Below the pieces are notes generated by a model. The model was not told where the DNA came from and made no database searches. It worked only from the letters and a program-made list of their open reading frames with translations. DNA of 64,000 bases from an uncultured Actinomycetota bacterium (GTDB taxonomy: Bacteria; Actinomycetota; Thermoleophilia; RBG-16-64-13), in assembly GCA_963783835.1 (NCBI GenBank), contig CAWAOX010000018.1, forward strand, positions 152,435-216,434. Reading direction: 5' to 3'. This document shows, piece by piece, positions 40,418 to 59,463 of this stretch (its first letter is position 1; each line of letters starts with the position of its first letter). The position numbers and the translations under genes were made by a program.

Positions 40418-41905
40418 ATGACTCACGATGACGAGCATCCGAAATCAGGGCGACCCGATTCCTTCGAGCCGGGAGCTTCGACGGTCAGCCGTCGCGATTT
40501 CCTTAGGATCGCGGGCCTATCCGGTGCCACGATCGCTCTCGGCGCAGGCTTGGGCGGGCTGCTGACCGCCTGCGGCGAAGAGGAAACCACCACCACCGCG
40601 GCGGAATCCACGACCACCACCGCAGGAAGCACCTCGACGTCGTCCGCGGCCAGCACCTCAACCTCGGTCTCGGCCAGCGAGGAAGTTGGAGCGGAAATCA
40701 AAATCGGTTTCGTCTCCCCCGCTACGGGGCCGCTCGCCAGCTTTGGGCTGAATGACGAGTACGCTGTTGACCGCTTCAGGGAATATGTCGGCGATGGTCT
40801 TGTTCTGGGAGACAACAAGAAGCACGAGATCACTGTAATCGTCCAAGACAGCCAGTCCGATTCCAACCGAGCATCGCAAGTGGCCGGGGACATAATAAAC
40901 AACAGCAAGCCGTCTATAATGGTGGTCGCCAGTACTCCGGACAGTGTTCTCCCCGTTTCCGTCCAATCCGAGGTGGGCAAGGTTCCCTGTTTTGGGACAG
41001 ACTGCCCCTGGCAGCCTTATTACTTCAATGGGCCGGAAGGCGGCTGGAACTACGCGCGTTGCTTGTTCTTCGGCATTGAGGACCTGGGCGCGTGCAATCA
41101 GGTAACCTGGAATCTGCTACCAACCAACAAGATCATCGGGACCATGTGGGCGAACGACGCCGATGGTAAGGCGTTCCAGGATGGAGTGACCGGAATGACA
41201 GCGGCCATGCTGCAGGCAGGGCTGACGGTCGTTGACCCCGGGCTATACCCGCCTGGCACTGAAGACTTCACTAGCCTGATTACTACCTTCAAGAAGACCG
41301 GCTGCGAAATAGTCTTTGGGAACTGTCCCCCGCCGGACCTTGTCAATTTCTGGAAGCAGTCGATACAGCAATCCTTCGTTCCGAAGATATGCACAGTCAA
41401 TAAGCCGCTCCTGTTCCCTGAGGACATGGAAGCGATCGGCGCCATTGGCACTAACATATGTTCGAACCTGTTGTGGTCGCCGCGGTGGCCGTACAAGTCC
41501 TACCTGACAGGGGAGAGCAACCAGCAATGGGCTGACGAGTTCACAAGAAGAACCGGAAAGCAATGGAGCGGCGCCCTCATGCACAGTGTCATCTTCGAGG
41601 CGGCGCTATGGACACTGAGGAACGCAGAAGACCCCACAAGCACTGAATCATGCCATGCTGCCGCCTCCAAGCTGAAGTTCGAGGGTATCGTGGGCCCCAT
41701 CGACTTCACGGAGCCAGTGGCAGCTTCCATAGAGCAGATCAAGCCGGGTCCCGGTCACCCACTGCCGACTGTCTACAAGACTCCGGTTCAGGAGGGCCAG
41801 TGGCAAACAGGCACGGGGCAGTACCCCTTCGAGATTCGCACCATAGAAAACAGCCTCCTACCCGAAGCACTCGTGGACGCGAAGATGCTGCCAATAACAG
41901 TCTGA
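40418..41905 (+). CDS. Orphan ABC substrate-binding lipoprotein, branched-chain-amino-acid (LivK/Peripla_BP_6) type, paralog A
   Basis: Tat-like SRRDFLRIAG plus lipobox LLTAC, a T/S/A linker, then IKIGFVSPATGPLASFG...SQSDSNRASQVAGDII. Confidence 0.75.
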   Translation: MTHDDEHPKSGRPDSFEPGASTVSRRDFLRIAGLSGATIALGAGLGGLLTACGEEETTTTAAESTTTTAGSTSTSSAASTSTSVSASEEVGAEIKIGFVSPATGPLASFGLNDEYAVDRFREYVGDGLVLGDNKKHEITVIVQDSQSDSNRASQVAGDIINNSKPSIMVVASTPDSVLPVSVQSEVGKVPCFGTDCPWQPYYFNGPEGGWNYARCLFFGIEDLGACNQVTWNLLPTNKIIGTMWANDADGKAFQDGVTGMTAAMLQAGLTVVDPGLYPPGTEDFTSLITTFKKTGCEIVFGNCPPPDLVNFWKQSIQQSFVPKICTVNKPLLFPEDMEAIGAIGTNICSNLLWSPRWPYKSYLTGESNQQWADEFTRRTGKQWSGALMHSVIFEAALWTLRNAEDPTSTESCHAAASKLKFEGIVGPIDFTEPVAASIEQIKPGPGHPLPTVYKTPVQEGQWQTGTGQYPFEIRTIENSLLPEALVDAKMLPITV

Positions 41906-42132
41906 CGTACGTACGATAGGACAGTGCCCCGGGCCAGGAAGCGACGCCTGGCCCGGGTTATTCGCGCCAAAGGGAGCTGCAGAATCTGCTCTCTTTGGGT
42001 TGTCATGATTGCTCCACTGAAGTTCAGGCATTTGGCGACCACAGCTGCCGGGAAGTCGGCTGTTAGTAGGCGTAATCCGTGAGGGTGGAGTTGTAGGCTG
42101 TTCGATCCGAGCCCCCGAAGGAGGTATGAGCG

Positions 42133-42852
42133 ATGGATGCCAAGCTGATTACGGAGTTGCTGAGAGATTATGAAGTAATCGACCTGTCGCACACTTTGGA
42201 GGAAGGCATCCCCACATACCCGAGACCAACGCCATATTCCCATAGTCTATTCGAGTCTTACTGGCATGGTGATCGTGCGTCCTCGTACGAGATTCTCATG
42301 AACGAGCATACCGGGACGCATATGGACGCGCCGGCTCATTTCATTCCGGAAGGTCCTGCTCACGTCTGGGTCGATGAGCTTCCCCCCACGTGTCTAATGG
42401 GCCGGGGGGTGATGATGGATGTGAGCGACACACCTCCGAAGACCGCATTCGGTCTGTCGGTACTCGAGAAATTCGAGCAGCAGCACGGCCCCATCAAAGA
42501 AGGCGACATCGTTTTGTTCCGTACCGGGTGGGACCGTAAGTGGAAATTGAAGCCGGATTTCGGGCCGTTTGTGCGCGATTGGCCGGGTCCCAGCGGCGAA
42601 GTCGCCCAGGCCCTGGTCCAACGTCGTGTCAAGGCGGTCGGCATTGACGTGACCGCGTTGGACACGTACGGCAACCCCGAACTGCCCTGCCACAACATTC
42701 TTCTCGGCAATGGAATACCCCTCATCGAGAACGTTGCCAACCTCGATCGACTGCCGCCCTTCAGCATCTTCATTGCGATGCCGCTCAAAATCAAATGGGG
42801 GTCTGGATCCCCACTTCGACCGCTTGCCTTCGTGCCCAAGGCTGCAGTTTGA
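42133..42852 (+). CDS. Cyclase-family protein (kynurenine formamidase / isatin hydrolase type), paralog A2
   Basis: HTGTHMDAPAHF...HNILLGNGIPLIEN. Confidence 0.75.
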   Translation: MDAKLITELLRDYEVIDLSHTLEEGIPTYPRPTPYSHSLFESYWHGDRASSYEILMNEHTGTHMDAPAHFIPEGPAHVWVDELPPTCLMGRGVMMDVSDTPPKTAFGLSVLEKFEQQHGPIKEGDIVLFRTGWDRKWKLKPDFGPFVRDWPGPSGEVAQALVQRRVKAVGIDVTALDTYGNPELPCHNILLGNGIPLIENVANLDRLPPFSIFIAMPLKIKWGSGSPLRPLAFVPKAAV

Positions 42853-42952
42853 CGTTCTTCAAGAACCGTAATCTCAGCACGTCGGCACGTCGTAACGCGA
42901 CCGGGCGAGTAGTTCATGTTCGTGACGAGAACAAAGGTTGGGAGCAAGAGCC

Positions 42953-43351
42953 ATGGTTGTGGGAATAACCCATGTGGGCGTCCGGGTCACCGACTTAGAG
43001 AAGTCGCTCGAGTTCTATCTTCGCATTCCGGATGTGCAAGAGGCGTTCAGGCTCTACTGGGACGATGGCAGCCTGATGATGGTCTGGCTCAAAGTCGCCC
43101 CCCGGCAGTTCCTGGAACTCTTTCCCGGAGGCAGCAAAGGTGCGCCGGCCGCTTCAGGATACTTCCATGTGTGCCTGCAGACAGACGATATCCACGAGCT
43201 TTATGACGAGTTGCTGAAAAGGGGAATCACTCCGAGGGGCCGTCCTGAGAAGCACGAGGACGACCATTCCTGGCAGTTCTGGATTGACGATCCGGAGGGC
43301 AACGCAATCGAGTTTCAGGAATTCACAGCTGACTCGTTGGAGCTGGAATAG
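42953..43351 (+). CDS. VOC-family (glyoxalase / extradiol-dioxygenase fold) protein
   Basis: ITHVGVRVTDLEKSLEFY...GYFHVCLQTDDIHELYDEL...EGNAIEFQE. Confidence 0.65.
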   Translation: MVVGITHVGVRVTDLEKSLEFYLRIPDVQEAFRLYWDDGSLMMVWLKVAPRQFLELFPGGSKGAPAASGYFHVCLQTDDIHELYDELLKRGITPRGRPEKHEDDHSWQFWIDDPEGNAIEFQEFTADSLELE

Positions 43352-43595
43352 GGTGGCCGGCATCTTTCTCCAGCGTGGCGAGACGAGGCCGGCTCCCGGC
43401 AGGGACGGGGACGTGTTGGGGGGGCCGATAACACGTCTGTCGCGCGGCCAGTCTTCGATGGGGGTTGGGGCATCCTTCAGGCTGTAGCAGATCTCTGTTG
43501 AGAGACGCGTTTGGAGTGAGGACCCATTAGCTCCCTTGGCACCAAAGAAGTGCTGGGAGCCCGGAAGGGCAGAGAGACATAGAAAAGGATTTCGC

Positions 43596-44390
43596 ATGAG
43601 GATCATTGACCCACATCTGCACGTTGATCGGATGAAAGGCAAGGACGTCGAGACCATGTCGGTAGCCGGGGTGGAGGGAGCAGTTCTGCCGACTCCTCAT
43701 CTTCTACAGTGGATGGTTTCGGCGGAGACATTATTCAGAATGTGGCGGATGTTCCTAGATTTCGAGGTCAAGCATTCGGAGTCACTCGGCGTCAAGGTGT
43801 TCGTGACCCTGGGCGTACCCTTCTACGGCTTGGACACAGAGTCCGTGGAGGAGGCACTGCGAAAGTTACCCGACTATCTCGATCATCCTTCGGTCGTCGG
43901 GCTGGGAGAGATTGGCATGGATGCCGGGATTGCAGACGAGGAGAGGCTGTTTCGTGCACAGCTAAACATCGCCAAAGAGCACAATAAGCCCGTGATCGTC
44001 CACACCCCCACTCCACTGGAACCTCAGGCGGCGGAGGTCTGTGGGCAGATAATCAAAGTCATTGAGAGCGAGCGCTTTCCCATGGATCGAGTGGTCCTAG
44101 ATCACACCGGCCGGAACAGTCTGAACGACCGCCTCAGCACCGGAGCTATGGTCGGTCTCAGCCTTTGCTACGACAAACTCCGCCCGGAAGATGCCGCCGA
44201 AATCGTGGCCGAGATGCCGGAACATCGCAACCAACTGCTCGTGAACTCGGAGTTCGGCTACGCGGGCGAGGGATACTTCTCGGTCCCCCGCTCCGTGCTA
44301 TCCATGCGTCGGTTGGGCCTGAGGCGCGACGTTATCGAGAGCGTCACTTGGGATAATCCAAAGAGGTTCTTCAACCTTCCAATTGACTAG
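43596..44390 (+). CDS. TatD-like metal-dependent hydrolase (amidohydrolase superfamily), paralog A
   Basis: IDPHLHVD (HxH)...GLGEIGMD...VIVHTP...DHTG. About 85% identical to 55789..56583. Confidence 0.7.
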   Translation: MRIIDPHLHVDRMKGKDVETMSVAGVEGAVLPTPHLLQWMVSAETLFRMWRMFLDFEVKHSESLGVKVFVTLGVPFYGLDTESVEEALRKLPDYLDHPSVVGLGEIGMDAGIADEERLFRAQLNIAKEHNKPVIVHTPTPLEPQAAEVCGQIIKVIESERFPMDRVVLDHTGRNSLNDRLSTGAMVGLSLCYDKLRPEDAAEIVAEMPEHRNQLLVNSEFGYAGEGYFSVPRSVLSMRRLGLRRDVIESVTWDNPKRFFNLPID

Positions 44391-44604
44391 CGCGCTCGAG
44401 TGGCGAAGGCTCCCGGCGAGCGAGGACGAGCATGGCGGCGAATGAAGAGTGAGTGGCCGTGGAGTCGATTGGCGAGTTGCAGCCGCGTAGGTACGCCATA
44501 AGGGAATTGTGAGAGACAGCCTTGACCTCGGGTGAGATGGGCCTTTGAACGCACCAGTGATGAAGCACTCGGTTGGGCAGGGTATCGGGAAAGAGGAGAG
44601 CAGT

Positions 44605-46725
44605 ATGAGTCAGCGCTTCGAGAAGCTCATGGAGCCCGGGATGATCGGGCCGGTGAAGACGCGCAACCGTATCATCAAGACGGCCAACGGCACCTCCTAC
44701 GTGGACGCTGACCAGACCGTCGGCGAGCGCATGATCACCTATTACGAGAGCCTGGCCCGGGGCGGCGTGGGCTTCTTGGTGGTGGAGTCCTGCGGGGTGG
44801 AGTACCCGCTGGGCATACACCACATCCACTACCAGCCAGACGGCAGCTACGAGGGCGTACAGTTGCACATGGACGACGACCGCCTGATTCCCGGCTTCCA
44901 GCGGCTCACCGATAGGGTGCACAAGCTGGGGTGCCCGGTGTCCATCCAGTTCCAGCACTCCGGGGCGTGGAACCCCACTGGGCTTTTGCCCCGCGACATG
45001 AAGATCCGCGATATCAAGTGCGCCTCGGCCATGACCGAGGAGGAACTTCCCGGCCCCGACTTTCTTCCCTGCCGGGCCCTGACCCATCAGGAAGTGGAGG
45101 ATCAGATCGACCTGTGGGCATCCGCCGCCGAGCGGGCCATGAGGGCAGGGTTTGACGCCTGCGAGATCAACCACGCCACGGCGCACCAGGGCAACAGCTT
45201 CCTGTCGCGCATCTGGAACAAACGCGACGATGAGTACGGCCCGCAGAGCTACGAGAACCGCACGCGGTTCATCCGCGAGATCATCAAGGAAGCCGAGCGC
45301 CGCTGCGGCCCGAACTTCGCGGTCCACGCGCTGATCAATGCTGTCGAGTACAACCACCCATTGGGGACAACCCTCGAAGAGGGCGTGGAGATGTCCAAGC
45401 TCATCTGCGAGGTAGCCGATGGCCTGAATGTGCGCGGGGAGCGCTACGGACACCGGGGCGGCCTCCTGCAGCCCGACCGCCTGATGTACCCGGAGCCACC
45501 CTACGACCTGCCCAAAGATTTCGACTGGAGCAGACGGGGAGACGGGGCGGCCGTGCCTTTGACGGCAGCGATCAAGCGGGCCGGCGTCAAGGTGCCGGTG
45601 TGGACTGCCAGCCGCATCGACGCAGAGTGGGGCGAGAAGTACCTGCGCGAAAGCAGGCTCGACTTCGTGGGCATGACCCGCTTCCTCCTGGCCGACCCCG
45701 AATACCCCAACAAGATCCGGGAGGGGCGCCTGGAAGATGTCCGGCCCTGCCTCGGCTGTTTGCATTGCTTTGAGACGCGCAACCGCAACAAGAAGCTCGA
45801 GTGTCGTGTGAACGGCACGCTGGGCCGCGAGATCATGCCCGAGTACCAAGCGAAGCCGGCGGAGCGCAAGAAGAAGGTACTCGTTGTGGGCGGCGGCCCC
45901 TCCGGCATGGAAGCGGCCCGGGTGGCGGCCCAGCGCGGCCACCAAGTCGCGCTGTACGAGAAGGACTCGCGGCTGGGCGGGCTGGTGCCTCTGTCGGCCA
46001 TCGTCAAGGACTGCGAGACGCCCGAACTCCAGGACTTCGTGAAGTACGAAGTGCGAGAGCTGAAGAAGGCGGGGGTGACCATCCACAAAGGCACCGCCGT
46101 CACCGCCGACGTGGTGCGCCAAGAGAAGCCCGATGCCATCATCGTGGCGGCCGGCGCTGTCCACCCCGAGGTGGCGCTGCCCGGGTACGGCCGCAAGAGC
46201 GTCATCCGGACCGAGAAACTCTACGGCATGCTCAACTTCTGGCTTAAGATCTTCACGCCTGAGCAGTTGCAGAAGCTCACCCATCTGTGGATGCCGGTAG
46301 GCAGGCGGGCGGTGATCATGGGGGGTACGCTCCATGGGTGCGAGCTCGGAGAATTCCTAGTCAAGCGGCACCGGAAGGTCATCGTCGCCCACAACGGCCC
46401 CGCCTCGGAGTTGGGGGACGAGATGGGCCGGGACGACCTGGCCAACCTGTGGCCGTGGTTCAAAGAGAAGTACGTGAGCCTGTGGCCGGACGCAAAGTAC
46501 CAGGCGGTGACCGAGGATGGCCTCAAGGTGCAGCAGCCCGACAAGCGGTCGTTCGTGCTTCCGGGTAAGAACGTCATCAACACCCAGGATTGGGCGGCCA
46601 ACGCAGCTCTTGTGGAAGAGCTGTCGAAGGTGGTATCCGAGGTATACGTAGCCGGAAGCGCCCGGGAACCCGGGCTCATGGCGGACGCGGTCCGGGAGGG
46701 GATAGAGGCGGGCTGCGCCGTCTGA
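44605..46725 (+). CDS. OYE-like FMN oxidoreductase fused to FAD/NAD(P)-binding domain with 4Fe-4S motif (2,4-dienoyl-CoA reductase / 2-enoate reductase / trimethylamine-dehydrogenase architecture)
   Basis: N-terminal TIM-barrel OYE motifs (…IQFQHSGAW…). CLGCLHCFETRNRNKKLEC Cys cluster. C-terminal VLVVGGGPSGMEAARVAAQRGHQVALYEK dinucleotide fold. Confidence 0.75.
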   Translation: MSQRFEKLMEPGMIGPVKTRNRIIKTANGTSYVDADQTVGERMITYYESLARGGVGFLVVESCGVEYPLGIHHIHYQPDGSYEGVQLHMDDDRLIPGFQRLTDRVHKLGCPVSIQFQHSGAWNPTGLLPRDMKIRDIKCASAMTEEELPGPDFLPCRALTHQEVEDQIDLWASAAERAMRAGFDACEINHATAHQGNSFLSRIWNKRDDEYGPQSYENRTRFIREIIKEAERRCGPNFAVHALINAVEYNHPLGTTLEEGVEMSKLICEVADGLNVRGERYGHRGGLLQPDRLMYPEPPYDLPKDFDWSRRGDGAAVPLTAAIKRAGVKVPVWTASRIDAEWGEKYLRESRLDFVGMTRFLLADPEYPNKIREGRLEDVRPCLGCLHCFETRNRNKKLECRVNGTLGREIMPEYQAKPAERKKKVLVVGGGPSGMEAARVAAQRGHQVALYEKDSRLGGLVPLSAIVKDCETPELQDFVKYEVRELKKAGVTIHKGTAVTADVVRQEKPDAIIVAAGAVHPEVALPGYGRKSVIRTEKLYGMLNFWLKIFTPEQLQKLTHLWMPVGRRAVIMGGTLHGCELGEFLVKRHRKVIVAHNGPASELGDEMGRDDLANLWPWFKEKYVSLWPDAKYQAVTEDGLKVQQPDKRSFVLPGKNVINTQDWAANAALVEELSKVVSEVYVAGSAREPGLMADAVREGIEAGCAV

Positions 46726-46830: not shown

Positions 46831-49056
46831 ATGAGCGAAGAGAAAGTGGTCAAATCGCTGGCCTGGTCGGCGGGCTGTGGCTCGCACGGGGGCTGCGGGG
46901 TAGAGATCCATGTGAAGGATGGCAAGGCGACCAAAGTCGAAGGGGATCCAGACCATCCCTTCAACCAGGGGCGCCTATGCGCCAAGGGTCTGGCAGTGTG
47001 CCAATACACCTATCATCCCGACCGTGTACTTCACCCCTTGAAACGCGTGGGAGAACGCGGAGAGGGCAAGTGGCAGCGGATCAGCTGGGACGAGGCTTTC
47101 GACATATGCGAAACCAAGCTGAAGGATATCCGCGATCAACATGGGGCGGAGTCAGTGGTCTTCTGCCAGGGTACGGGCAGAGACGTCGGGGGTCCGATAT
47201 CTTATCTCGCGTATGCGTACGGCAGCCCCAACTGGACGCAGATGGGGCTTTCGGGTCAGTGCTGCTACACCCCTCGCCAGGCCTCGATGTTCGCCACTCA
47301 GGGCGACTACTGCGTCGCCGATTGCTCGCAGTTCCTCGAAAAGAGATATGACGACCCAGAGTGGAGGCCTCCGAAGTACATAATCATCTGGGCCCAGAAC
47401 CCGAGCATCGGGTGTTCGGATGCGTTCTTCCTTCCCTGGATCGTCGACTCCATGAAACGCGGGTCCAAGCTCATCGTCATCGATCCTCGTTCCACGTGGT
47501 ATTCAGGTAGGGCCGAGCTACATCTCAAGTGCCGGCCGGGGGCCGACGGGGCCATCGCCATGGCCATGCTCAATGTTGTGATCAACGAGGAGCTCTACGA
47601 TAAAGAATTTGTGGCGAAGTGGTGCCACGGGTTCGAGGAACTCAAGCAGAGGGTCCAGGAGTATCCTCCCGAGAAGATGGCACCTATTGCCTGGGTCACT
47701 GCCGACCAAATCAGGGAAGCCGCTCGTCTATTTGCCACCAACACTCCGTCGGCCATCCACTGGGGGCAGCCCATCGATACGGTGCCGCAGTCGACCGCCG
47801 TCGGCCAGGCGATCAACGATCTGTGGGCGATCACCGGCAATATCGATGTGCCAGGCGGTATGGTCTTGGCCAAATCCTCACACGGCGTCTCCAGTTACCC
47901 TTACAGCACCAGAGAGGTCATGGAGATGTATGGGGAAGACCTGGTCAACCGCCTGAACGAGAAGAGAATCGGGGCAGACAGATACCCCGCGGTGAAGAAT
48001 TTCCGAGCCTGGGTCCAGCCGGATGTCCTCATCGAGCAGATGGAGACCGGTAAGCCTTACCCGGTCAAGGCAGCGTGGATCCAGACATCCAACGTGATCG
48101 GCGGACAGGCGGCCGAGCCAAGGAGACACTACGAGGCGCTAAAGAAACTCGATTTCATCGTCTACGTGGACCTGTTCCAGACCCCCACCAGCATGGCAGT
48201 GGCCGACATCTTCTTGCCGGCAGCGACATTCCCCGAGAAGAACAGCATGCGTTCGTGGTGGGCTCCGCTGAGTGTGATGGTCAAGGCCGTGCAGGTGGGC
48301 GAAGCCAAGTCTGACTGGGAGATCAACTTGGAGATGGCCAAGCGGGTGGCGACCAAGCCCATTCCGTTCAAAGATGTCATCGAGCTCTTTGACGCTCGTC
48401 TCCAGCCAGCCGACTTGACCTTCCAGGAGCTAGTCGACAAGGGCGGATGGGAAATGCCCCCCGAAGGTCGGAGCCGGCCCTACTACCGTCACGAGAAAGG
48501 CTACCTGAGGGAGGACAAACAGCCCGGATTCAACACTCCGACCGGGAAAGTCGAGCTCTACTCTACTTTCTGGGAGCGTTGTGGGCTTGACCCGCTGCCC
48601 TACTTCGAAGATGCACCTGAGAGTCCAGTGGCGCATCCCGAACTGACCGAGAAGTACCCGTTCATACTGGCTAGCGGCCGGCGCTCGCCGGTGCTGTTTC
48701 ACTCTGAGATGCGCAACATCCCGTGGCTGAGGGAGATCGATCCCGATCCCAATGTGGAACTGCATCCTGATATCGCGGCGAAGTTGGGCATCGGGGACGG
48801 GGAATGGGTCTACGTGGAGAACGACCGCGGCAGGGTCAAGATGAAGGCCAAGGTGACCAGGATGGCTCATCCTGGCATTGCGACGGTCGCTCACGGGTGG
48901 TGGCTACCAGAGACGGAAGGCAAGGCTCCGAATCTGTTCAGCACCTGGGAGCACAATGTCAACAACCTGATTCCCATGGGCAGGCAAGGACGCTCCGGCT
49001 TCGGCGGGGGCGGCTACCGTAGCTGCCTATGCAGAGTTGTCAAGATAGCCGACTGA
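46831..49056 (+). CDS. Cytoplasmic molybdopterin (Mo/W-bisPGD, DMSO-reductase superfamily) oxidoreductase catalytic subunit
   Basis: N-terminal FS0-like motif C-x2-H-x2-C-x30-C (WSAGCGSHGGCGV...RLCAKG). No Tat signal. Molybdopterin-binding domains (…IIWAQNP…, …ILASGRRSPVLFHS…, C-terminal beta-barrel …GEWVYVENDRGRVKMKAKVT…). Confidence 0.75.
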   Translation: MSEEKVVKSLAWSAGCGSHGGCGVEIHVKDGKATKVEGDPDHPFNQGRLCAKGLAVCQYTYHPDRVLHPLKRVGERGEGKWQRISWDEAFDICETKLKDIRDQHGAESVVFCQGTGRDVGGPISYLAYAYGSPNWTQMGLSGQCCYTPRQASMFATQGDYCVADCSQFLEKRYDDPEWRPPKYIIIWAQNPSIGCSDAFFLPWIVDSMKRGSKLIVIDPRSTWYSGRAELHLKCRPGADGAIAMAMLNVVINEELYDKEFVAKWCHGFEELKQRVQEYPPEKMAPIAWVTADQIREAARLFATNTPSAIHWGQPIDTVPQSTAVGQAINDLWAITGNIDVPGGMVLAKSSHGVSSYPYSTREVMEMYGEDLVNRLNEKRIGADRYPAVKNFRAWVQPDVLIEQMETGKPYPVKAAWIQTSNVIGGQAAEPRRHYEALKKLDFIVYVDLFQTPTSMAVADIFLPAATFPEKNSMRSWWAPLSVMVKAVQVGEAKSDWEINLEMAKRVATKPIPFKDVIELFDARLQPADLTFQELVDKGGWEMPPEGRSRPYYRHEKGYLREDKQPGFNTPTGKVELYSTFWERCGLDPLPYFEDAPESPVAHPELTEKYPFILASGRRSPVLFHSEMRNIPWLREIDPDPNVELHPDIAAKLGIGDGEWVYVENDRGRVKMKAKVTRMAHPGIATVAHGWWLPETEGKAPNLFSTWEHNVNNLIPMGRQGRSGFGGGGYRSCLCRVVKIAD

Positions 49057-49069
49057 CAGGAGCAGCTCG

Positions 49070-49399
49070 ATGTCGAGAATGGCCTTGATGATAGATTACG
49101 AATTCTGCACCGGCTGCCACAGTTGTGAGGTCGCCTGCAAACAAGAGCATGGCTATCCCGTGGGAATCGGCGGTATTCACATGAACGAGGTAATGACGAC
49201 CAAGCCCGATGGTGAGCTGAGAATCGATTACCTGCCCTTTCCTACTATCTACTGCGATCTCTGCAGTGCTCGAACGGCCCAGGGCGAGGTTCCGGCGTGC
49301 GTGAAGCACTGCCAAACCGCAGTGATGAACTACGGCAGCACTGTTGAGTTGGCTCGACTGATGGAGGAGCGGAGTCACGCAGCCATGTTCACGCCGTAG
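49070..49399 (+). CDS. Small 4Fe-4S ferredoxin-like subunit (109 aa) of the molybdopterin enzyme
   Basis: CTGCHSCEVAC (CxxCxxCxxxC) plus YCDLCSARTAQGEVPACVKHC. Follows the alpha subunit after a 13-nt gap. Confidence 0.7.
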   Translation: MSRMALMIDYEFCTGCHSCEVACKQEHGYPVGIGGIHMNEVMTTKPDGELRIDYLPFPTIYCDLCSARTAQGEVPACVKHCQTAVMNYGSTVELARLMEERSHAAMFTP

Positions 49400-49532
49400 T
49401 CGGGTTCGTTAGACATGGCTGGAAGCGCGCGTGACGGCAGATAGCCGTGTGGCTTGGCGCTTCTGAAGAGAGCAGCGGCGCCCGAGCTGTGTCCTCCCAA
49501 TAGGGGTCGCCAGATGCAAGGAGGCAGATTAG

Positions 49533-50386
49533 GTGAAGCTATACGTCTTGAACGGCGGCCAGTTGTTCGTGGAAAAGGGCTTTTCTCGCACTTTGGCACG
49601 GCGGAGGACAATGACAAGGACTACGAGCCCGAGGCTCGCATTCTTCGCAGTCTCCAGTTCTACGTCGAGCACCCCGAGGCCAAGATTGTTTTCGAACTCG
49701 GGTACGACAACGATGACTTCAGCAAGTTTGAGGGGTTCCCGCATCGTCAGGGACCCGGAGGGATGTGGAGCCACCAGGAGCCGGATGAGAACCCGGTGGC
49801 CCAGTTGAAGCAGATCGGTGTCAAGCCAGAAGACATCGACTATGCAGTCGTGTCTCATCTCATGAGCGAGCATGTGGGCTACCTTCCGCACTTCGCGGGG
49901 ACGAAGGCGAAGATCGTTGTTCAGCAGGACGAACAGGAGTACGCGAGCCGGATAGGGGTCCCGCCGAGTCCGGGGGACGAGCCGGCGGTGGAGCAGTTCC
50001 ATTCCTGGATGTACCTTCGCAAACTCTACGAGGTGCCCGGCCTCAACTATATCTACATCACGGGTGACCACGAACTAGTAGGCAAGGATGTCGAGATTCT
50101 GTCACTACCAGCGCATACACCCGGATTTCCATACGTGATGGTGCGTCTGCCGAAGACCGGCCCCGTGTTCCTGTCCGCCTGTGAGACAAGGGGCATGTAC
50201 TACGACGTGCCGATCAACGGCTATGCCCCCGGAATACCGCATGCGTTCACGTGGTCCGCAGCCGGGGAGTTGCACAGCTTCAAGAGGGTGCGGGACCTTG
50301 TCGAGGGGGAGGAGGGACAGATCTTTTTCGGTCATGACCTGGAACAGTTCCTTACGTTGAAAGCGGCGCCCGAGTACTACGACTGA
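49533..50386 (+). CDS. MBL-fold-like metallo-hydrolase, paralog B; frameshift near 49580-49600
   Basis: MKLYVLNGGQLFVEKGF, then a frame shift to ...SHFGTAEDNDKDYEP...VVSHLMSEHVGY...LPAHTPGF...FFGHD (ORF 49454..50386 frame). Confidence 0.65.
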
Positions 50387-50458
50387 GCAGCGGATCAGGC
50401 TGCGCGAGGTGGCGTTGGGGGAATGAGCCAGAAGCTGGAAAGCAGAAAGGAGCGGCAA

Positions 50459-51949
50459 ATGAGCAGCGGGGGAAAAGAGCCGAAAGACCGAGAAGGCGCG
50501 ACCGGCGCAACGCCGGGACCCGTCATCAGCCGGAGGGAGTTCCTCAAGGTCGCGGGGATAGCTGGCGCCGCGATTGGTGTCGGCGCGGGGCTGGGCGGGT
50601 TGCTGGCCGCCTGCGGTAATGAGACGACCACCACGACCGGGGCGCCGACCACCGGGGCGCCGACCACCCAGGCGACCACGGCTACGACGGCGGCGGCCAG
50701 CACCACCACCGTCAGTGCTGCCGCCGAGATGGGCCGGGAGATTAAGATCGGTGTCGTGATGCCCAAGACCGGCCCGCTGGCGGCCTTCGGCCCGGCGGAC
50801 GAGTGGGGCGCCAGTCTGGCGTCCGAAGTGATAGGGGACGGGATGGTCCTTGGGGACGCCAAGAAGCACCCGGTCACCTTCGTGCTGAGAGACTGTCAAT
50901 CCGACTCCAACAGAGCCGCCCAGATAGCGGGCGATCTTATCCAGAACGACAAGGTGGACATACTCCTGGGCTCGGTGACTCCCGATGTCACAAACCCGGC
51001 TGCGGATCAGGCCGAGGCCATGGGGACGCCTTTCATGACCAGCTATGCTCCCTGGCAGGCGTTCATATTCGGGCGGGGCGCCGATCTGACCAAGACGTTC
51101 AAGTGGACGTATGCTCATTCGATGGGCACCGAGCAGATGGGCTATAGCATCATCGGGGCCGTAGATCAGATCCCCAACAACAAGATGGTCGCACTTATCA
51201 CCATGAACAACCCGGACGGCAATGCCTGGCTGGACGACAAATACGGCACCCCGGTGGCCTTGCGAAAGTACGGCTATGAACTGGCCGCCTCCACCCAGTT
51301 CAATCTAGGCTCCGAGGACTTCACCAAGGAGATCGCCACTTTCAAGAAGGCGGGCGTCGACGTGCTGATCGCCGCAATGCAACCGCCGGATTTCACCAAT
51401 TTCTGGAAGCAATCGATGCAGCAGGGGTTCACTCCTAAGATACCGAGCGGAGGGCTGGGCATCACGATGCCTCCGGGCGTGGCTGGCATCGGCCCGCAAG
51501 CAGTCGGCCTGATCATCGAGCACGGCTGGACTCGGGACTATCCCTACATCGATCCTCTCACCGGGATGAATTGCCCGCAGTTGGCGGCGAGATGGGAGAA
51601 GGACACCGGCCTCCAAGAGCAATTGTCCATCGGCTTCCTGGACAAGTTCGCGTGGACGGTAGATGTGCTCAAGCGCACCAAGAACCTGGACGACAAAGAG
51701 TCGATCGTCGAGGCCATCAAGACCACCAAGATGGACGGCATAACCGGTCCCATCGATTTCACTGCCCCGATCGACGCCGATCCAACTGCGACGGACAGCT
51801 TCCGGCCGCATCCGAACGTGTCCAAGCCCGTGTGGACCGGTGCGCAATGGATCAAAGGGACGACGTGGCCTATCGACGCGGTGACCGTGAATAACGTATT
51901 GGCTCCGGCGGTGCCGACGGTGCCGACAGTCCCGTACGTGTACGCATGA
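50459..51949 (+). CDS. Orphan ABC substrate-binding lipoprotein, branched-chain-amino-acid type, paralog B
   Basis: AAGGAG RBS. SRREFLKVAG plus lipobox LLAAC, a T/A linker, then IKIGVVMPKTGPLAAFG...CQSDSNRAAQIAGDLI. Confidence 0.75.
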   Translation: MSSGGKEPKDREGATGATPGPVISRREFLKVAGIAGAAIGVGAGLGGLLAACGNETTTTTGAPTTGAPTTQATTATTAAASTTTVSAAAEMGREIKIGVVMPKTGPLAAFGPADEWGASLASEVIGDGMVLGDAKKHPVTFVLRDCQSDSNRAAQIAGDLIQNDKVDILLGSVTPDVTNPAADQAEAMGTPFMTSYAPWQAFIFGRGADLTKTFKWTYAHSMGTEQMGYSIIGAVDQIPNNKMVALITMNNPDGNAWLDDKYGTPVALRKYGYELAASTQFNLGSEDFTKEIATFKKAGVDVLIAAMQPPDFTNFWKQSMQQGFTPKIPSGGLGITMPPGVAGIGPQAVGLIIEHGWTRDYPYIDPLTGMNCPQLAARWEKDTGLQEQLSIGFLDKFAWTVDVLKRTKNLDDKESIVEAIKTTKMDGITGPIDFTAPIDADPTATDSFRPHPNVSKPVWTGAQWIKGTTWPIDAVTVNNVLAPAVPTVPTVPYVYA

Positions 51950-52093
51950 AACTAGATAGGACCGGGTGCCGCCCAGCAGGTGCCCGGTCCCAGGCGCAAG
52001 GCAGGTAGTCGACCCCCTGTGTAGGGGCCGCCCCCAGTCCAGCGGGGCTGCGGGGCGGCCCAAGACATCCGAGAGCGGGTCACCGAAAGAAGG

Positions 52094-52981
52094 ATGGAGC
52101 GTATGCACCGAGTTCTCTTGCCCTTTGAGTTCGCCGAGCCCACGAGCGTGGCCGAGGTCATCGAACTCGTGGACGGCGAGAAGGCCAGACCGCTAGCCGG
52201 AGGCGTCGATCTTGTCCTCAAGATGCGGCTGCGCCAAGTCGTCCCGGAGAGGGTGGTCAGCCTGCAGAAAGTGCCCGGCCTGGACTACGTGCAGGCGGAT
52301 GGCTATACGCTCAGATTCGGCGCTCTAGCCACGCTCAGGCAGATTGAGCGGGCACCGGAGGTCAAGGACCGGTGGCCCCTCCTGGCCGAAGCCATCGGTT
52401 GCATCGTGTCCGTGCAGACCAAGGTGATGGGCACGGCGGTCGGCAACCTGTGTGTCGGCACCCCGGCGTCCGACGTGGCCCCGGCCCTCTACGCCCTCGG
52501 CGCCCGGGTGAAGATCGCCGGCAGGCAGGGGGTGCGGGAGATCCCCATCGAGGAGTTCTTCGTGGACGCCGGGAAGACCGCGGTCGGGCGTAACGAGATC
52601 GTGACAGAGATCGTGGTGCCGGTCCCGCCTTTGGGGAGCGCCGGCGCTTTCCTCAAGCTCTCCAAGACCTCCGAAGATATCGCCAAAGTGAACGCCGCCG
52701 TCATGGTGTCCGTTTCCGGCGACACCTGCACTTCGGCTCGGATCGCCCTTGGCTCGGTGGCGCCGACCCCGGTGAGGGCGGTGGAAGCGGAGCAAGTGCT
52801 GCAAGGACGGCCTTTGAGCGCGAAAGCTATCGCGGAGGCAGCCGAAGCGGCCTGCGAAGCGGTCGCTCCGATATCCGACGTGCGCTCCACCGCGGCCTAC
52901 CGCAACGAGATGGTGCGGGTGCTGGTCCGGGACGCGCTGGTCAGGGCGGTCTCGCGAGTCCCAGCTGCAAAGGAGGGATGA
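52094..52981 (+). CDS. Xanthine-dehydrogenase-family molybdoenzyme, FAD-binding medium subunit (CoxM-like)
   Basis: PCMH-type FAD domain (…ARPLAGGVDLVLKMRL…) with a CO-dehydrogenase-flavoprotein C-terminal domain. Translationally coupled to the next two genes. Confidence 0.75.
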   Translation: MERMHRVLLPFEFAEPTSVAEVIELVDGEKARPLAGGVDLVLKMRLRQVVPERVVSLQKVPGLDYVQADGYTLRFGALATLRQIERAPEVKDRWPLLAEAIGCIVSVQTKVMGTAVGNLCVGTPASDVAPALYALGARVKIAGRQGVREIPIEEFFVDAGKTAVGRNEIVTEIVVPVPPLGSAGAFLKLSKTSEDIAKVNAAVMVSVSGDTCTSARIALGSVAPTPVRAVEAEQVLQGRPLSAKAIAEAAEAACEAVAPISDVRSTAAYRNEMVRVLVRDALVRAVSRVPAAKEG

Positions 52982-53466
52982 TGGCCAAGGAGATAGCGAC
53001 CTTTCTCGTCAACGGCGGGGAGTACGAAGTCATCATCGAGCCCCACGTGCTCCTCATCGATGTGCTCCGGGACAAGCTCGGGCTCACCGGGACCAAATAC
53101 GCCTGCGGCGCCGGTGACTGCGGCGCCTGCACCGTCCTCATCGACGGCAGACCTTCGTTCTCGTGCCTCACGCTGGCGGTCACAGCCAAAGGCAAGAGCA
53201 TCTTTACCATCGAGGGCCTGGCGGAAGGAAATGAACTCCATCCTATCCAGCAGGCTTTCGTGGATAAGGGAGCCATCCAGTGTGGCTTCTGCACGCCGGG
53301 CATGATCCTCTCGGCCAAGGCGCTGCTGGATGAGAACCCCGAGCCCACCCGGGAGGAGATAAAGAGCGCTCTTGCCGGCAACCTATGCCGCTGCACCGGT
53401 TATGTGAAGATCCTGGACGCCGTTGAGTCTGCAGCCGCCGGCCTGAGGAACGGAGGGCAACGATGA
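52978..53466 (+). CDS. Xanthine-dehydrogenase-family [2Fe-2S] small subunit (CoxS-like)
   Basis: CGAGDCGACTV (plant-type 2Fe-2S) plus CGFCTPGM...CRCTGY (second cluster). Confidence 0.8.
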   Translation: MMAKEIATFLVNGGEYEVIIEPHVLLIDVLRDKLGLTGTKYACGAGDCGACTVLIDGRPSFSCLTLAVTAKGKSIFTIEGLAEGNELHPIQQAFVDKGAIQCGFCTPGMILSAKALLDENPEPTREEIKSALAGNLCRCTGYVKILDAVESAAAGLRNGGQR

Positions 53467-55775
53467 CCATGAATACGTTCTCCTGCGTCGGCAAGCCGCT
53501 TACCCGGCCAGATGTTGCTGCCAAGGCTACTGGTGCAGCCGAATACGGAGCCGACGTCACGCTTCCGGGCATGCTGATCGGCAGGATCCTCACTAGCCCA
53601 TACGCTCATGCCAACGTTGTCAAGATCGACACCTCGAGGGCGAGAGCTCTTCCCGGGGTGGCCGCGGTAATAACCCACGAAGACGTCCCCAAGAGAAGCT
53701 TCACCCGCTCGGTCATGGCCGAGGGCCTGCCCCCGTTCGCCTATGAGGGCGAGAATCAGGATCAGTACATCCTCTCCGACAAGGCCCGGTACGTCGGCGA
53801 CTGGATCGCCGCGGTGGCCGCCGTCGATGTGTACACGGCTGAGCGGGCCCTCGACCTCATCGAGGTCGAATACGAGCCGCTTCCCGCCGTCTTCGACCCG
53901 GCAGAAGCCCTCGAGCCGGGTGCTCCCACCGTCCACGAACGCTGGAGGGACAACGTCGCCGGGGTCATCGAGCACTCGTTCAACCGGGGCGACCTGGACA
54001 AGGCCTTGGCCGAGTCCGAATACGTGGTCGAGTTCTCCGGCCGCAATTCCCGGCAGAAACAGGCTCATATGGAGCCGGACGTGGCGGTAGCGCGCTGGGA
54101 CGAACGCGGCCGAGTGACGATCTGGTCGCCGAACCAGAACGCTCACCTCGCCAAGAGGACCATGGCACGGAGGATCTTCGGCATCGGCGAGGGGGACGTC
54201 CGCTGGATCACCACGACCGTGGGCGGAGGGTTCGGGGCTAGGCTCAGTCTTGGAGTCGAGCCGCTCGCCGCGCTACTCGCCAAGGTGACCGGCAAACCGG
54301 TGAAGGTGATCATCACCCGGGAAGAGGACTTCAGTGGCTGGAGCAGCCGTACGGAGCAGCGTCAGACCATCCGACTCGGCGTCACCAAAGATTGCATCAT
54401 CACAGCCATCGAGCAGAGGATCGTCTCCGACGCCGGCGCCTACTTCTCCCACAGCGGCACTATCAGTGCCGTCAACATGCAGGGGACGTTGGGAGTGATG
54501 CGTGCGCCCGTGATATACGGCAAGGCAACGATCGTCTACACCAACAACCCCACCTCGAGCGGCATGCGGGGATACGGCAACCCGGAGGGGTCCTTCATCC
54601 TGCAGCAGGCTATCGACATGGCCGCCGAGAAGTGCGGGATGGACCCCCTCGAGTTCCGCCTGAGGAACGCCAGGGGGGTGGGTGAGCCCAGCATGTGGGA
54701 GCCCCAGATCCTGACGAGTTGCGCTCTTCCTGAGTGCATCACCCGGGGCGCCGAGGCCATCGGCTGGAAGGACAAGTGGTTGGGGTGGGGCCGAAAGAAG
54801 GAGGGCCGCTACCGGCGCGGAGTGGGCATGTCCATCATGACCCACGCAAGCGGCGCGGGTGGCTTCCTCCTGGAACACTCGACCGCCTCCATCAAGTTGA
54901 ACGAGGACGGCTCGGCCCAGCTTGCGGTCAGCCCCTGTGAGATGGGCCAGGGCATCCTCGGCGCCCTCTCGCAGATCGCCGCCGAAGGGATGGGTCTCCG
55001 CTACGAAGACATCCACGTGGTGACCGGGGATACCGACGTCACTCTCTTCGATATCGGCACCCACGCCAGCCGCTCCACCTACGCCATCGGCAACGCCGTC
55101 CTCGACGCGGGTCGCCAGATCAAGGCCATCGTCCTCGAGCGGGCGGCCGCAAGGCTGGAGGCTGCGCCTGAAGCCCTCGACATCAGAGAAGGCCGAGTCT
55201 ACGCGAATGACGATGCCGCGAAAGGCCTGAGCGTGGCCGAGATAGCGAGCGAGGGCATCTACGACTACGGCTTAGACGCGCGGCACATCCAGGCGACCGG
55301 CAAGCACCAGAGCCTCACCCACTGCCCCAACTTCCAGGCGGGTTTTGCCGAGATCGAGGTCGATCTCGAGACCGGGGTGATAAAGGTGCTCAAGTTCGTG
55401 GTCGCCCACGACATCGGCCGGGCCATCAACCCGCTCACGGTGGAGTCCTGTCTTGAAGGGGGCGCCTATCAGGGCTTGGGCTATGCGTTGACCGAGGACC
55501 TCCTTATAGACGGCAAGACCGGCAAGGTGCTCACCGACAGCTTCGCGACCTACAAGATGCTCTCCACCCTGGATATGCCGCCAGTAGAAGTCATCCTCGT
55601 AGAAGAACCCGATCCGACCGGGCCCTTCGGAGCCAAGGGCGTGGGCGAGACCGGAATCACTAACGTGGCGCCCTCGATTGCGAACGCTCTGTACGACGCG
55701 GTCGGTGTACGGATCCATTCGCTTCCGATGACCCCAGAAAAGGTTCTGGAAGCGCTAAAGACGAAACAGGCTTAG
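53463..55775 (+). CDS. Xanthine-dehydrogenase-family molybdopterin-binding large subunit (CoxL-like, hydroxylase type)
   Basis: 770 aa with aldehyde-oxidase/XDH a/b-hammerhead and MoCo domains. GGGFGAR motif (hydroxylase-type rather than the CODH VAYRCSFR loop). Confidence 0.8.
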   Translation: MTMNTFSCVGKPLTRPDVAAKATGAAEYGADVTLPGMLIGRILTSPYAHANVVKIDTSRARALPGVAAVITHEDVPKRSFTRSVMAEGLPPFAYEGENQDQYILSDKARYVGDWIAAVAAVDVYTAERALDLIEVEYEPLPAVFDPAEALEPGAPTVHERWRDNVAGVIEHSFNRGDLDKALAESEYVVEFSGRNSRQKQAHMEPDVAVARWDERGRVTIWSPNQNAHLAKRTMARRIFGIGEGDVRWITTTVGGGFGARLSLGVEPLAALLAKVTGKPVKVIITREEDFSGWSSRTEQRQTIRLGVTKDCIITAIEQRIVSDAGAYFSHSGTISAVNMQGTLGVMRAPVIYGKATIVYTNNPTSSGMRGYGNPEGSFILQQAIDMAAEKCGMDPLEFRLRNARGVGEPSMWEPQILTSCALPECITRGAEAIGWKDKWLGWGRKKEGRYRRGVGMSIMTHASGAGGFLLEHSTASIKLNEDGSAQLAVSPCEMGQGILGALSQIAAEGMGLRYEDIHVVTGDTDVTLFDIGTHASRSTYAIGNAVLDAGRQIKAIVLERAAARLEAAPEALDIREGRVYANDDAAKGLSVAEIASEGIYDYGLDARHIQATGKHQSLTHCPNFQAGFAEIEVDLETGVIKVLKFVVAHDIGRAINPLTVESCLEGGAYQGLGYALTEDLLIDGKTGKVLTDSFATYKMLSTLDMPPVEVILVEEPDPTGPFGAKGVGETGITNVAPSIANALYDAVGVRIHSLPMTPEKVLEALKTKQA

Positions 55776-55788
55776 GAGAGGAGCTCTC

Positions 55789-59085: not shown

Positions 59086-59463
59086 TCACTCACCCCCTTC
59101 AAGAAGACGGGGGACGAGACCCATGCCCGCCAGGCGTTCCAGACTCACGGCCACATACTTGGGTTCGAGCTCCAGGGCGTAGCAGACCCTGCCCGTCTGC
59201 TCAGCCGCCACCGCGGTGGTGCCGGAACCCAGGAAGGGATCGAAGACCAGTGTCGCCCGGGCGGCTGGAGTTGAGCAGCGCCCGGCTGAAGAGTTCGACC
59301 GGCTTCATGGTGGGATGCTCCTCGGAGCGGGCCGGACGCGGGATCTGCCAGAGGTCGCTCTGGCTGCGGTCTTCGACCGGGACCAGCCGGCGTGCGCCCG
59401 TTCCTTCCAGCCGTACCAGATGGGCTCATACTGGGTGTGGTAGTCCTTGCGGGACGCCCTCAT
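59086..59463 (-). pseudogene. Phage-type N6/N4 DNA methyltransferase, C-terminal part only, frameshifted
   Basis: Minus strand reads ...DYHTQYEPIWYGWKE...HPTMKPVELFSRALLNSSRPGD. With a 1-nt correction it continues TVFDPFLGSGTTAVAAEQTGRVCYALELEPKYV (PF01555 C-terminal motifs). The N-terminal DPPY region is missing. Confidence 0.5.

Follow-up and report, generated by a model that had tools for sequence, protein, structure and literature searches.

A two-subunit molybdenum enzyme related to the Gordonibacter-type catechol dehydroxylases, with an unusual proximal cluster motif, in an uncultured Actinomycetota bacterium

What kind of molybdenum enzyme carries an incomplete set of cysteines for its proximal iron-sulfur cluster, and is paired with an electron-transfer protein of only 109 amino acids (aa)? 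This question is raised by two adjacent genes, here called alpha and beta, in a 64,000-nucleotide stretch of DNA (the window; contig CAWAOX010000018.1, positions 152,435 to 216,434 of the forward strand, assembly GCA_963783835.1) from an uncultured Actinomycetota bacterium. Alpha encodes a catalytic subunit that binds molybdenum in a bis-pyranopterin guanine dinucleotide cofactor (Mo-bisPGD), and the pair very probably belongs, by sequence, to the clade of Gordonibacter-type catechol dehydroxylases typified by Cldh and Dodh. The odd cysteine motif of its proximal cluster, FS0, appears to be the signature of that soluble clade, in which the first canonical cysteine, Cys1, is lost. The features on which the argument turns are as follows.

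46831..49056, + strand: alpha, 741 aa, cytoplasmic catalytic Mo-bisPGD subunit (Pfam, BLASTP, neighbour-joining (NJ) tree, AlphaFold2 (AF2) model)
46864..46986, + strand: FS0 segment of alpha, W12...C22...C50-A-K52, with Cys16, Cys22 and Cys50 only (direct reading, alignment with acetylene hydratase (AH), family census)
47263..47277, + strand: C145-Y-T-P-R149 of alpha, in which Cys145 is the predicted Mo ligand and aligns with AH Cys141
49070..49399, + strand: beta, 109 aa, electron-transfer subunit with two predicted [4Fe-4S] clusters, starting 13 nt after alpha
49106..49138, + strand: first Cys group of beta, C13-x2-C16-x2-C19-x3-C23 (direct reading; kept in the beta homologues listed)
49253..49312, + strand: second Cys group of beta, C62-x2-C65-x11-C77-x3-C81 (direct reading; kept in the beta homologues listed)

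Alpha starts at the ATG at 46831, the start used by an identical database protein (P0001) and by its homologues, which begin at the same MSEEK position; a longer open reading frame (ORF) from 46789 is present, and its start is used neither by P0001 nor by any homologue. The N-terminus reads MSEEKVVKSLAW12-S-A-G-C16-G-S18-H19-G-G-C22-G-V and, further on, G-R-L-C50-A-K52. Because the FS0 motif begins at residue 12, no space is left for a Tat (twin-arginine translocation) or Sec signal, and no twin-arginine (RR) motif was found in the N-terminal sequence. Three Pfam domains match above their gathering scores (Molybdop_Fe4S4, 52.8 bits; Molybdopterin, 113.3 bits; Molydop_binding, 73 bits). These results bear out an earlier sequence-only reading of the locus, which had described a Mo-bisPGD enzyme as cytoplasmic and lacking a Tat signal. 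The unusual FS0 motif that it reported, C-x2-H-x2-C-x30-C, is confirmed as a pattern by direct reading and by the homologue counts given below; its last spacing was a miscount, the interval being x27 by direct reading.

The characterised relatives of alpha identify its family. Using sequences of Cldh, Dodh, Dadh and AH taken from the eLife source alignment, BLASTP placed Cldh closest (42% identity, 573 bits), followed by Dodh (40%, 547 bits), AH (34%, 334 bits), Dadh (29% over a partial alignment, 172 bits) and a Psr-like enzyme (23%, 97 bits). The identity between Cldh and Dodh is itself only 45% (PMC7028382, supplementary file 2c), and alpha therefore lies within the divergence spanned by characterised members. 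A C-x2-P-R motif after the Mo-ligand Cys is common to alpha, Cldh, Dodh and Dadh and is not found in AH. We also built an NJ tree (137 sequences, 649 columns, 200 bootstraps) from 50%-identity representatives, collected by an exhaustive HMMER search, together with references and the Psr-like sequence as outgroup. In this tree alpha groups with its own cluster representatives at 98% bootstrap and falls together with Cldh, Dodh and further sequences lacking Cys1 in a clade supported at 71%, the wider clade reaching 99%; canonical-motif clades including Dadh branch next outside, and AH stands many nodes farther out. At clade level alpha is thus clearly a member of a characterised group, an outcome that the sequence-only reading had named as contrary to its own view. 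Gordonibacter-type enzymes are cytoplasmic, AH-related and composed of two subunits, a smaller catalytic one that carries no Tat signal and a small Fe-S protein, and they have no membrane anchor (PMC7028382, PMC11887054, PMC11585353, PMC12771579).

Profile and structure searches agree on the superfamily and yield no narrower name. Although the three Pfam domains are found, the 26 NCBIfam models that match alpha all score under their cut-offs, the best being PhsA (283 versus 694 bits), followed by FdhA (TIGR01591, 257 versus 666) and DmsA/YnfE (223 versus 778); because none comes near its cut-off, no NCBIfam name is transferable. The best solved relative by sequence is AH (2e7z, E 1.3e-98), then polysulfide reductase PsrA and formate dehydrogenases, and pyrogallol transhydroxylase (4v4c_A) is a very distant match (E 6.4e-7). 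An AF2 model built on a shallow alignment of 15 sequences had a predicted local distance difference test score (pLDDT) of 62.5 and was discarded; the model used, built on 98 homologues, has a pLDDT of 92.7, a predicted template-modelling score (pTM) of 0.93 and a four-domain fold, for which Foldseek returned 2e7z as the best match (template-modelling score (TM) 0.83) and PsrA (2vpw_A) at TM 0.82. The PDB copy searched contains no catechol dehydroxylase structure. The sequence-only reading had seen more likeness to AH, pyrogallol transhydroxylase and resorcinol hydroxylase than to respiratory reductases. In that AH is closer than the respiratory reductases by both sequence and fold it was right; the closest characterised family is the Gordonibacter-type one. 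Two other memberships were rejected: formate dehydrogenase, on the TIGR01591 score and on solved structures scoring far under AH, and the pyrogallol transhydroxylase/resorcinol hydroxylase (AthL) family, on the remoteness of 4v4c_A and on the form of true AthL pairs (L001, L070), which are 838 aa + 277 aa. AthL-type proteins were recognised by a first domain without FS0 and a beta subunit of ~280 aa with a CarboxypepD_reg domain.

The family is large. Of the 8000 candidates scored in a protein search with alpha, 6329 reached E <= 1e-20; the 120 best matches are 61-100% identical to alpha, and those that are named come mostly from metagenome-assembled genomes (MAGs) of Dehalococcoidia/Chloroflexota. 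A scan of species-representative genomes found 361 alpha loci, mostly from sediment Dehalococcoidia; Dehalococcoidales dominate the best 80, among which are also Desulfobacterota (Desulfopila aestuarii DSM 18488, for one), Acidobacteriota, Neomoorella sulfitireducens, Desulfitobacteriia and SAR324.

Which canonical ligand is missing from FS0 follows from where the Cys2 column is placed, and this was set by a MAFFT alignment that included AH and family members in which Cys2 is retained. In it AH Cys12 (Cys2) falls on Ser18, the catalytic Asp13 on His19, Cys16 (Cys3) on Cys22, Cys46 (Cys4) on Cys50, Lys48 on Lys52 and the metal-ligand Cys141 on Cys145. AH Cys9 (Cys1) is matched by no Cys: it lies over the invariant Trp12, which a 3-residue insertion follows. 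The sequence-only reading had put His at the second ligand position, which does not hold, as that column is occupied by Ser18 and His19 is the next residue, at the place of AH Asp13. On this alignment the missing canonical ligand appears to be Cys1, with His19 replacing no cysteine.

The motif comes in two variants. Variant 1, the type of alpha, is W-S-x-G-C-G-[ST]-H-G-G-C, with its N-terminal Cys at -6; variant 2, W-S-x-G-[PA]-G-C-H-G-G-C, retains Cys2 and has its N-terminal Cys at -4, two residues after that of variant 1. Cldh (PGCHEGC) and Dodh (PGCHNGC) are of variant 2. Variant 1 was found in 48 species-level genome loci, all labelled Chloroflexota or Dehalococcoid-type, and variant 2 in Desulfobacterota, Acidobacteriota, Firmicutes and Pseudomonadota loci and in some Chloroflexota loci. 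The window-type motif GCGSH is absent from the eLife 2020 alignments, and the Figure 7 alignment holds only [ST]GPGCH (23 times) and AGPGCH (once). An indel artefact at the FS0 motif is ruled out because the motif is kept in 48 independent genomes, despite two frameshifts in a nearby hydantoinase B gene (see below). The sequence-only reading had named an ordinary Cys at the His position after indel correction as an outcome contrary to its view; C-G-[ST]-H-G-G-C recurs in 70/120 close homologues.

A census of 50%-identity cluster representatives and references having an N-terminus places these variants among their relatives. The canonical C-x2-C-x3-C is carried by 87 sequences, in which Cys2 is followed by His in 29, by Tyr in 11 and by Asp in 5, namely AH and sequences close to it; C-H-x2-C without Cys1 occurs in 12 and C-H-x3-C without Cys1 in 6. 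In a few sequences a Cys is kept further upstream, at -10 to -12 (C-W-S-P-P-G-C-H-G-G-C is one case), and these, judged by sequence, look like intermediates. C-H-G-G-C together with all four Cys occurs in the nearest canonical relatives and, because His coexists with four Cys there, His19 is best understood as the ancestral residue beside Cys2. H19, C22, C50, C145, P148 and R149 do not vary in the 98 sequences drawn from the window clade and the Cldh clade, and no member has more than three cysteines available for FS0. Residue 52, which is equivalent to the AH lysine between cluster and pterin, covaries with the motif: among the 120 close homologues, counted without correction for phylogeny, C16/S18 goes with Lys52 in 70/71 and [AP]16/C18 with Arg52 in 39/45. 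Some relatives retain fewer cysteines. A locus in the Dehalococcoidales MAG N6_293 (L009) and protein P0058 read W-S-A-G-R-G-S-H-G-G-C, in which only Cys3 and Cys4 remain, and the same MAG also has an ordinary variant-1 copy (L020). Representative P0252 reads S-A-P-G-D-H-P-T-G-A, with Asp for Cys2, Ala for Cys3 and Pro for Cys4, and the FS0 cluster may have been lost in its lineage.

Beta contains eight Cys, sufficient for two [4Fe-4S] clusters, and gives weak Fer4 matches in Pfam. Among PDB matches, its residues 1-63 align with residues 1-62 of PsrB/NrfC and its residues 49-102 with residues 125-178 of FdhB, the beta subunit of a tungsten (W)-containing formate dehydrogenase. Beta has no inserted middle domain, which would hold Cys groups II and III, and is therefore about half the usual size, with two clusters instead of four. 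In NarH/PsrB-type structures, the two clusters next to the catalytic subunit are those bound by Cys groups I and IV, and by analogy beta would keep the half of the customary electron wire that lies nearest alpha. The earlier description of a truncated, roughly half-size ferredoxin partner with two Cys motifs was correct as to a two-cluster mini-ferredoxin and not as to truncation or degradation, for this is the normal partner: tblastn found a beta homologue directly downstream of alpha, 10-30 nt away in most loci, in 75/83 loci examined, with all eight Cys kept. Such regular pairing argues for redox catalysis. Gordonibacter sp. 28C encodes, next after its Cldh orthologue, a 115-aa protein with the same eight-Cys layout, to which beta is 50% identical (E 6e-32). 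The absence of a membrane anchor gene was also rightly called: all ORFs from 40.3 to 56.6 kb lie on the + strand, each is assigned by Pfam to a soluble enzyme or a binding protein, and none of them is an NrfD/DmsC-type anchor, nor is any ORF within 40-57 kb anchor-like.

Alpha-beta is probably a soluble cytoplasmic two-subunit Mo bis-pyranopterin enzyme of the Gordonibacter-type clade with a reductive mechanism. Reductive dehydroxylation of a hydroxylated aromatic compound, proposed by analogy with the characterised members, is the most likely activity, and we give it an even chance; the direction of catalysis and the substrate class are what we infer here, as are the role of His19 and the type of cluster, whereas clade membership, the make-up of the subunits, the conservation of the motif and its covariation come from the sequence data themselves. 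In this scheme electrons from a low-potential donor would enter the two [4Fe-4S] clusters of beta (Cys groups I and IV), pass to FS0 of alpha, held by C16, C22 and C50 only, and continue through K52 and the pterin to Mo, ligated by Cys145. At Mo(IV), oxygen-atom transfer would remove an aromatic hydroxyl from a catechol- or polyphenol-type substrate, followed by 2e-/2H+ regeneration, a course of events modelled on that proposed for Cldh, Dodh and Hcdh. His19, invariant and at the AH Asp13 position, would act as an active-site acid/base or proton relay beside the cluster and not as a cluster ligand. One Mo per protein is present in native Gp Hcdh, a Gordonibacter-type enzyme that is active with methyl viologen/dithionite (PMC11585353).

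Several points weigh against this proposal. The tree was made by NJ, a distance method, alone, and its inner node stands at 71%. No characterised member falls within the window's own subclade (at least 54% identity), and 42% identity fixes neither reaction nor substrate. The roles given to His19 and to the three-Cys site would follow from an alignment to a structure only 34% identical, and the direction of electron flow is not readable from sequence. The neighbour counts that we report below for other genomes are inflated by synteny between related MAGs. Finally, the window neighbours (hydantoinase A/B, RidA, metallo-β-lactamase (MBL)-fold lactonase, TatD, Old Yellow Enzyme (OYE) and xanthine dehydrogenase (XDH)-family proteins) differ from the context of short-chain dehydrogenases/reductases (SDRs) and thiolases that dominates in Dehalococcoidia, and could point instead to N-heterocycle or lactone chemistry.

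The alternative that survives best, although we consider it unlikely, reverses the direction of flow: alpha-beta would use water to hydroxylate, or would dehydrogenate, a substrate that is aromatic, heteroaromatic or alicyclic, and the electrons would leave by way of FS0 and beta for an acceptor in the cytoplasm. Mo-bisPGD enzymes do operate in both directions, the neighbours in the window include an XDH-family hydroxylase-type enzyme and flavoproteins, and in other genomes the pair stands beside AthL-type hydroxyl-transfer enzymes; a homologue also lies in the Thauera 3,5-dihydroxybenzoate operon, its role left open (PMC7028382). The characterised members of the clade, however, are all reductive dehydroxylases (PMC7028382, PMC11887054, PMC11585353, PMC12771579), and the known oxidative hydroxylases belong to other clades, with ethylbenzene dehydrogenase matching alpha at 67 bits and pyrogallol transhydroxylase at E 6.4e-7.

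A second question concerns what FS0 itself is. With slightly less than even confidence, and from sequence comparisons, we suggest that the FS0 of the whole Gordonibacter-type clade, including alpha, is a non-standard, three-Cys cluster, either [3Fe-4S] or a site-differentiated [4Fe-4S] whose fourth iron would be ligated by His19, O-ligated or unligated. Within that three-Cys reading, and just as tentatively, the variant-1 subclade may have re-engineered the site by moving a Cys two residues and exchanging Arg52 for Lys. If true, the NarG His-type and the arsenite-oxidase 3Fe type would be joined by a third non-canonical FS0 in Mo-bisPGD enzymes, one that may tune a very low potential or proton delivery for aromatic C-O cleavage. 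We found no comment on the FS0 motif of Gordonibacter-type enzymes in the literature searched, which is absence of evidence within that scope only, and a three-Cys proximal cluster appears undiscussed there. Together with the covarying relocation of a Cys in alpha's subclade, it is the most interesting loose end of this work.

More doubtful still is that His19 is itself the fourth ligand, completing a 3Cys/1His [4Fe-4S] cluster as in the NarG type and constituting a new ligation type. Its invariance in 98 sequences of both clades beside only three conserved Cys would fit, as would the variant-1 spacing C-x2-H-x2-C, which mimics the C-x2-C-x2-C of ferredoxins, and relatives P0309 and P0333, whose Cys2 column holds Asp (G-D-H-P-V-G-C), indicate that a non-Cys residue is tolerated. 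Most of the clade, however, reads C-H-x2-C, so that adjacent Cys and His would have to bind one cubane, a rare arrangement; in 29 canonical relatives that already have four Cys, Cys2 is followed by this His too; and the equivalent AH residue, Asp13, reportedly points to the metal-bound water and not to the cluster (Seiffert 2007; tenBrink 2011).

A non-redox, AH-like hydratase in which the Fe-S cluster is structural or electrostatic only is very improbable. AH is the best solved match by sequence (E 1.3e-98) and by fold (TM 0.83), and some relatives are labelled 'acetylene hydratase' in their sources; yet the catalytic Asp13 of AH is His in alpha, the hydrophobic ring is lost (I142 to Y146, W179 to S196), the canonical C-x2-C-x3-C is absent, AH lies many nodes away in the NJ tree, and alpha has a two-cluster beta beside it in 75/83 loci, whereas the crystal structure of AH (2e7z) is of one chain. 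Least credible of all is a respiratory-type reductase whose acceptor would be inorganic or an S/N-oxide, such as thiosulfate/polysulfide, DMSO or selenate. In its favour are the top NCBIfam scores (283 bits for PhsA, 257 for FdhA and 223 for DmsA/YnfE) and PsrA as second-best fold match; those scores, however, fall far under the cut-offs (694, 666 and 778), the Tat signal, four-cluster beta and NrfD/DmsC anchor are all absent, and the Psr-like sequence, at 97 bits, served as the tree outgroup.

The surroundings of alpha-beta in the window form a catabolic block. In order it contains hydantoinase A and B, an MBL-fold lactonase-like protein, two RidA proteins, an IclR regulator, a binding protein, a cyclase, a vicinal oxygen chelate (VOC) protein, a TatD-like hydrolase, an OYE/FadH-type protein, alpha and beta, followed by a second MBL paralogue, a binding protein, an XDH-family trio and a second TatD-like hydrolase.

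40274..46725, + strand: upstream context, comprising solute-binding protein, cyclase (PF04199), VOC/glyoxalase, TatD-like hydrolase and OYE/FadH-type Fe-S flavoprotein (Pfam, NCBIfam)
44545-46725, + strand: 726-aa OYE/FadH-type flavoprotein with Old Yellow Enzyme and pyridine-nucleotide-disulfide oxidoreductase domains, BaiCD/2,4-dienoyl-CoA-reductase-like, immediately upstream of alpha
49454..56583, + strand: downstream context, comprising MBL-fold lactonase-like protein, solute-binding protein, XDH-family trio and TatD-like hydrolase (Pfam, NCBIfam)
52094-55775, + strand: XDH-family trio of FAD (295 aa), 2Fe-2S (162 aa) and molybdenum cofactor (770 aa) subunits, 2.7 kb downstream of the bis-PGD enzyme
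36743-37672 and 49454-50386, + strand: two paralogous MBL-fold proteins, 309 and 310 aa, with weak likeness to acyl-homoserine lactone (AHL) lactonases and 4-pyridoxolactonase
34918-36774, + strand: hydantoinase B/oxoprolinase gene split over three frames (34918-35484, 35462-36172, 36151-36774)

Any functional link of the upstream and downstream neighbours to alpha-beta is putative. The OYE/FadH-type flavoprotein could be a pathway ene-reductase or an NAD(P)H-linked electron input. The XDH-family trio adds a second, likewise uncharacterised, Mo enzyme to the block, for which all curated models score under cut-off (XdhA, 635/780 bits; the alpha subunit of 4-HBCR, the reductase acting on 4-hydroxybenzoyl-CoA, 552/995). 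We rejected it as a second dehydroxylase of the 4-HBCR/Ucdh type, as XdhA outscores 4-HBCR alpha and the FAD subunit matches 4-HBCR beta weakly, at 119 bits. One MBL paralogue follows hydantoinase B and the other directly follows beta. A 616-aa hydantoinase B orthologue aligns end to end with the split gene at 73-76% identity in frames 3/1/3, which therefore implies two frameshifts, near 35430 and 36058, and the gene is either a pseudogene or affected by assembly indel errors. A scan for promoters and terminators from 43.3 to 52.2 kb gave nothing above shuffled expectation.

The catabolic block also differs from the rest of the window. Positions 1-27000 hold housekeeping genes, among them PurA, PurL, PurF, PurM/N and PurH, at 64-69% guanine plus cytosine (GC), and the block (28000-50000) is at 57-63%. 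Other features of the window are listed here.

55-2604: DnaB with a LAGLIDADG intein
14060-15376: NapC/NirT-type multihaem cytochrome
59447-59827: Mu-transposase C-terminal fragment

The named relatives of PurA are two 'Actinobacteria bacterium' MAGs only, at 77-79% identity, so that the host is assigned to Actinomycetota only weakly by this gene; the nearest named relatives of alpha, by contrast, are Dehalococcoidia. This mismatch, the GC step and the Mu-transposase fragment suggest that the catabolic block may have been acquired horizontally.

In other genomes alpha and beta are the only universally conserved part of the loci. Among 83 loci examined, a cyclase lies near alpha in 10, an OYE protein in 4 and a TatD protein in 3. 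In a set of 79 loci the commonest neighbours are SDRs (29), thiolase-like proteins (26), a DUF35 partner (21), FadB-like proteins (21) and acyl-CoA dehydrogenases (20), followed by a RACo-like activase (16), subunits of tripartite ATP-independent periplasmic (TRAP) transporters (9-14), cyclases (8) and an AthL-type beta (7); housekeeping genes also recur beside alpha-beta because related MAGs share synteny. A Chloroflexia MAG carries hydantoinase A/B, alpha, beta, RidA, TatD and RidA consecutively. In Neomoorella sulfitireducens (L001/L056, 1-16000), alpha-beta lies amid an AthL-type transhydroxylase (838 aa + 277 aa), an SDR, BKACE, 3-hydroxyacyl-CoA dehydrogenase, two cyclases, a thiolase, an acyl-CoA dehydrogenase, a CoA-transferase and a TRAP transporter. 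From its Pfam content we read this cluster as the gene complement of a pyrogallol/phloroglucinol degradation pathway, and no other context points as clearly to a trihydroxybenzene-type substrate, here for the Neomoorella orthologue. The recurrent neighbours as a whole (SDR, cyclase, AthL-type transhydroxylase, BKACE, thiolase, and TRAP or major facilitator superfamily (MFS) transporters) fit polyphenol or trihydroxybenzene catabolism, and the variability of the contexts fits substrate-specific enzymes plugged into different aromatic or polyphenol routes. As a separate observation, the RACo-like protein, which joins a 2Fe-2S domain to an ASKHA ATPase in the manner of the reductive activators of corrinoid proteins, is found near alpha-beta in 16/79 loci (for example, L019:1568-3511), where it may provide ATP-driven input of low-potential electrons or reflect mere synteny among Dehalococcoidales.

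'Acetylene hydratase-like' genes have been noted beside pyrogallol transhydroxylases on sediment Chloroflexi scaffolds (Hug et al. 2013, PMC3971608). Our findings tie such abundant genes to the experimentally defined soluble catechol dehydroxylases of gut Coriobacteriia. If the environmental homologues also dehydroxylate polyphenols, they would make up a major route by which aromatics of plant and humic origin are processed anaerobically in sediments.

Beta aligns with the first and last Cys groups of the four-cluster subunits (PsrB/NrfC, FdnH/FdhB, DmsB and NarH), and unlike them has no second ferredoxin domain, two clusters rather than four and no C-terminal anchor helix. The Eggerthella-type enzymes (Dadh, Cadh and Hcdh) share the broad AH-related radiation and the C-x2-P-R after the Mo-ligand Cys, but have a Tat signal, 1000-1200 aa, a four-Cys C-x2-C-x4-C FS0 and a four-cluster beta with an anchor (PMC7028382). 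AH of Pelobacter acetylenicus (2e7z) resembles alpha in being cytoplasmic and ~730 aa long, with a Cys metal ligand (C141, equivalent to C145), a Lys two residues after Cys4, and W293 and W472, both conserved in alpha. AH, however, has the canonical C-x2-C-x3-C with Asp after Cys2, contains W, works without a partner and is non-redox, whereas alpha has no Cys1, His after the Cys2 column, an obligate beta, and C-x2-P-R in place of the C-I-G-N-T of AH.

The closest agreement is with the Gordonibacter-type enzymes (Cldh, Dodh, Gp Hcdh, Gs Vadh and Eadh1/2), which bind molybdenum in a bis-molybdopterin guanine dinucleotide cofactor (Mo-bisMGD) and belong to the DMSO reductase superfamily. Homology is full-length (40-42% for alpha, 50% for beta), and both have a catalytic subunit of ~740-800 aa, no Tat signal, no anchor and the gene order alpha-beta; both have lost Cys1, carry W-S-x-G-x-G-x-H-x-G-C and C-x2-P-R after the Mo-ligand Cys, and fall in one NJ clade. 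The clade signatures (P-G-C-H-x-G-C without Cys1, and C-x2-P-R) were derived in the present analysis and not taken from the literature; alpha matches them in part, having C-x2-P-R, His19, Cys3 and Cys4 but a displaced N-terminal Cys. The window subclade differs in having one extra loop residue, a Cys at -6 (C-G-S-H-G-G-C) instead of -4 (P-G-C-H-x-G-C), and Lys52 instead of Arg. Its host in the window is an environmental high-GC bacterium and not one of the gut Coriobacteriia, and its neighbours there are ATP-binding cassette (ABC)-type binding proteins, hydrolases and XDH-family proteins, as opposed to MFS transporters and LysR/LuxR regulators. Alpha-beta is a new environmental member of an already known enzyme class.

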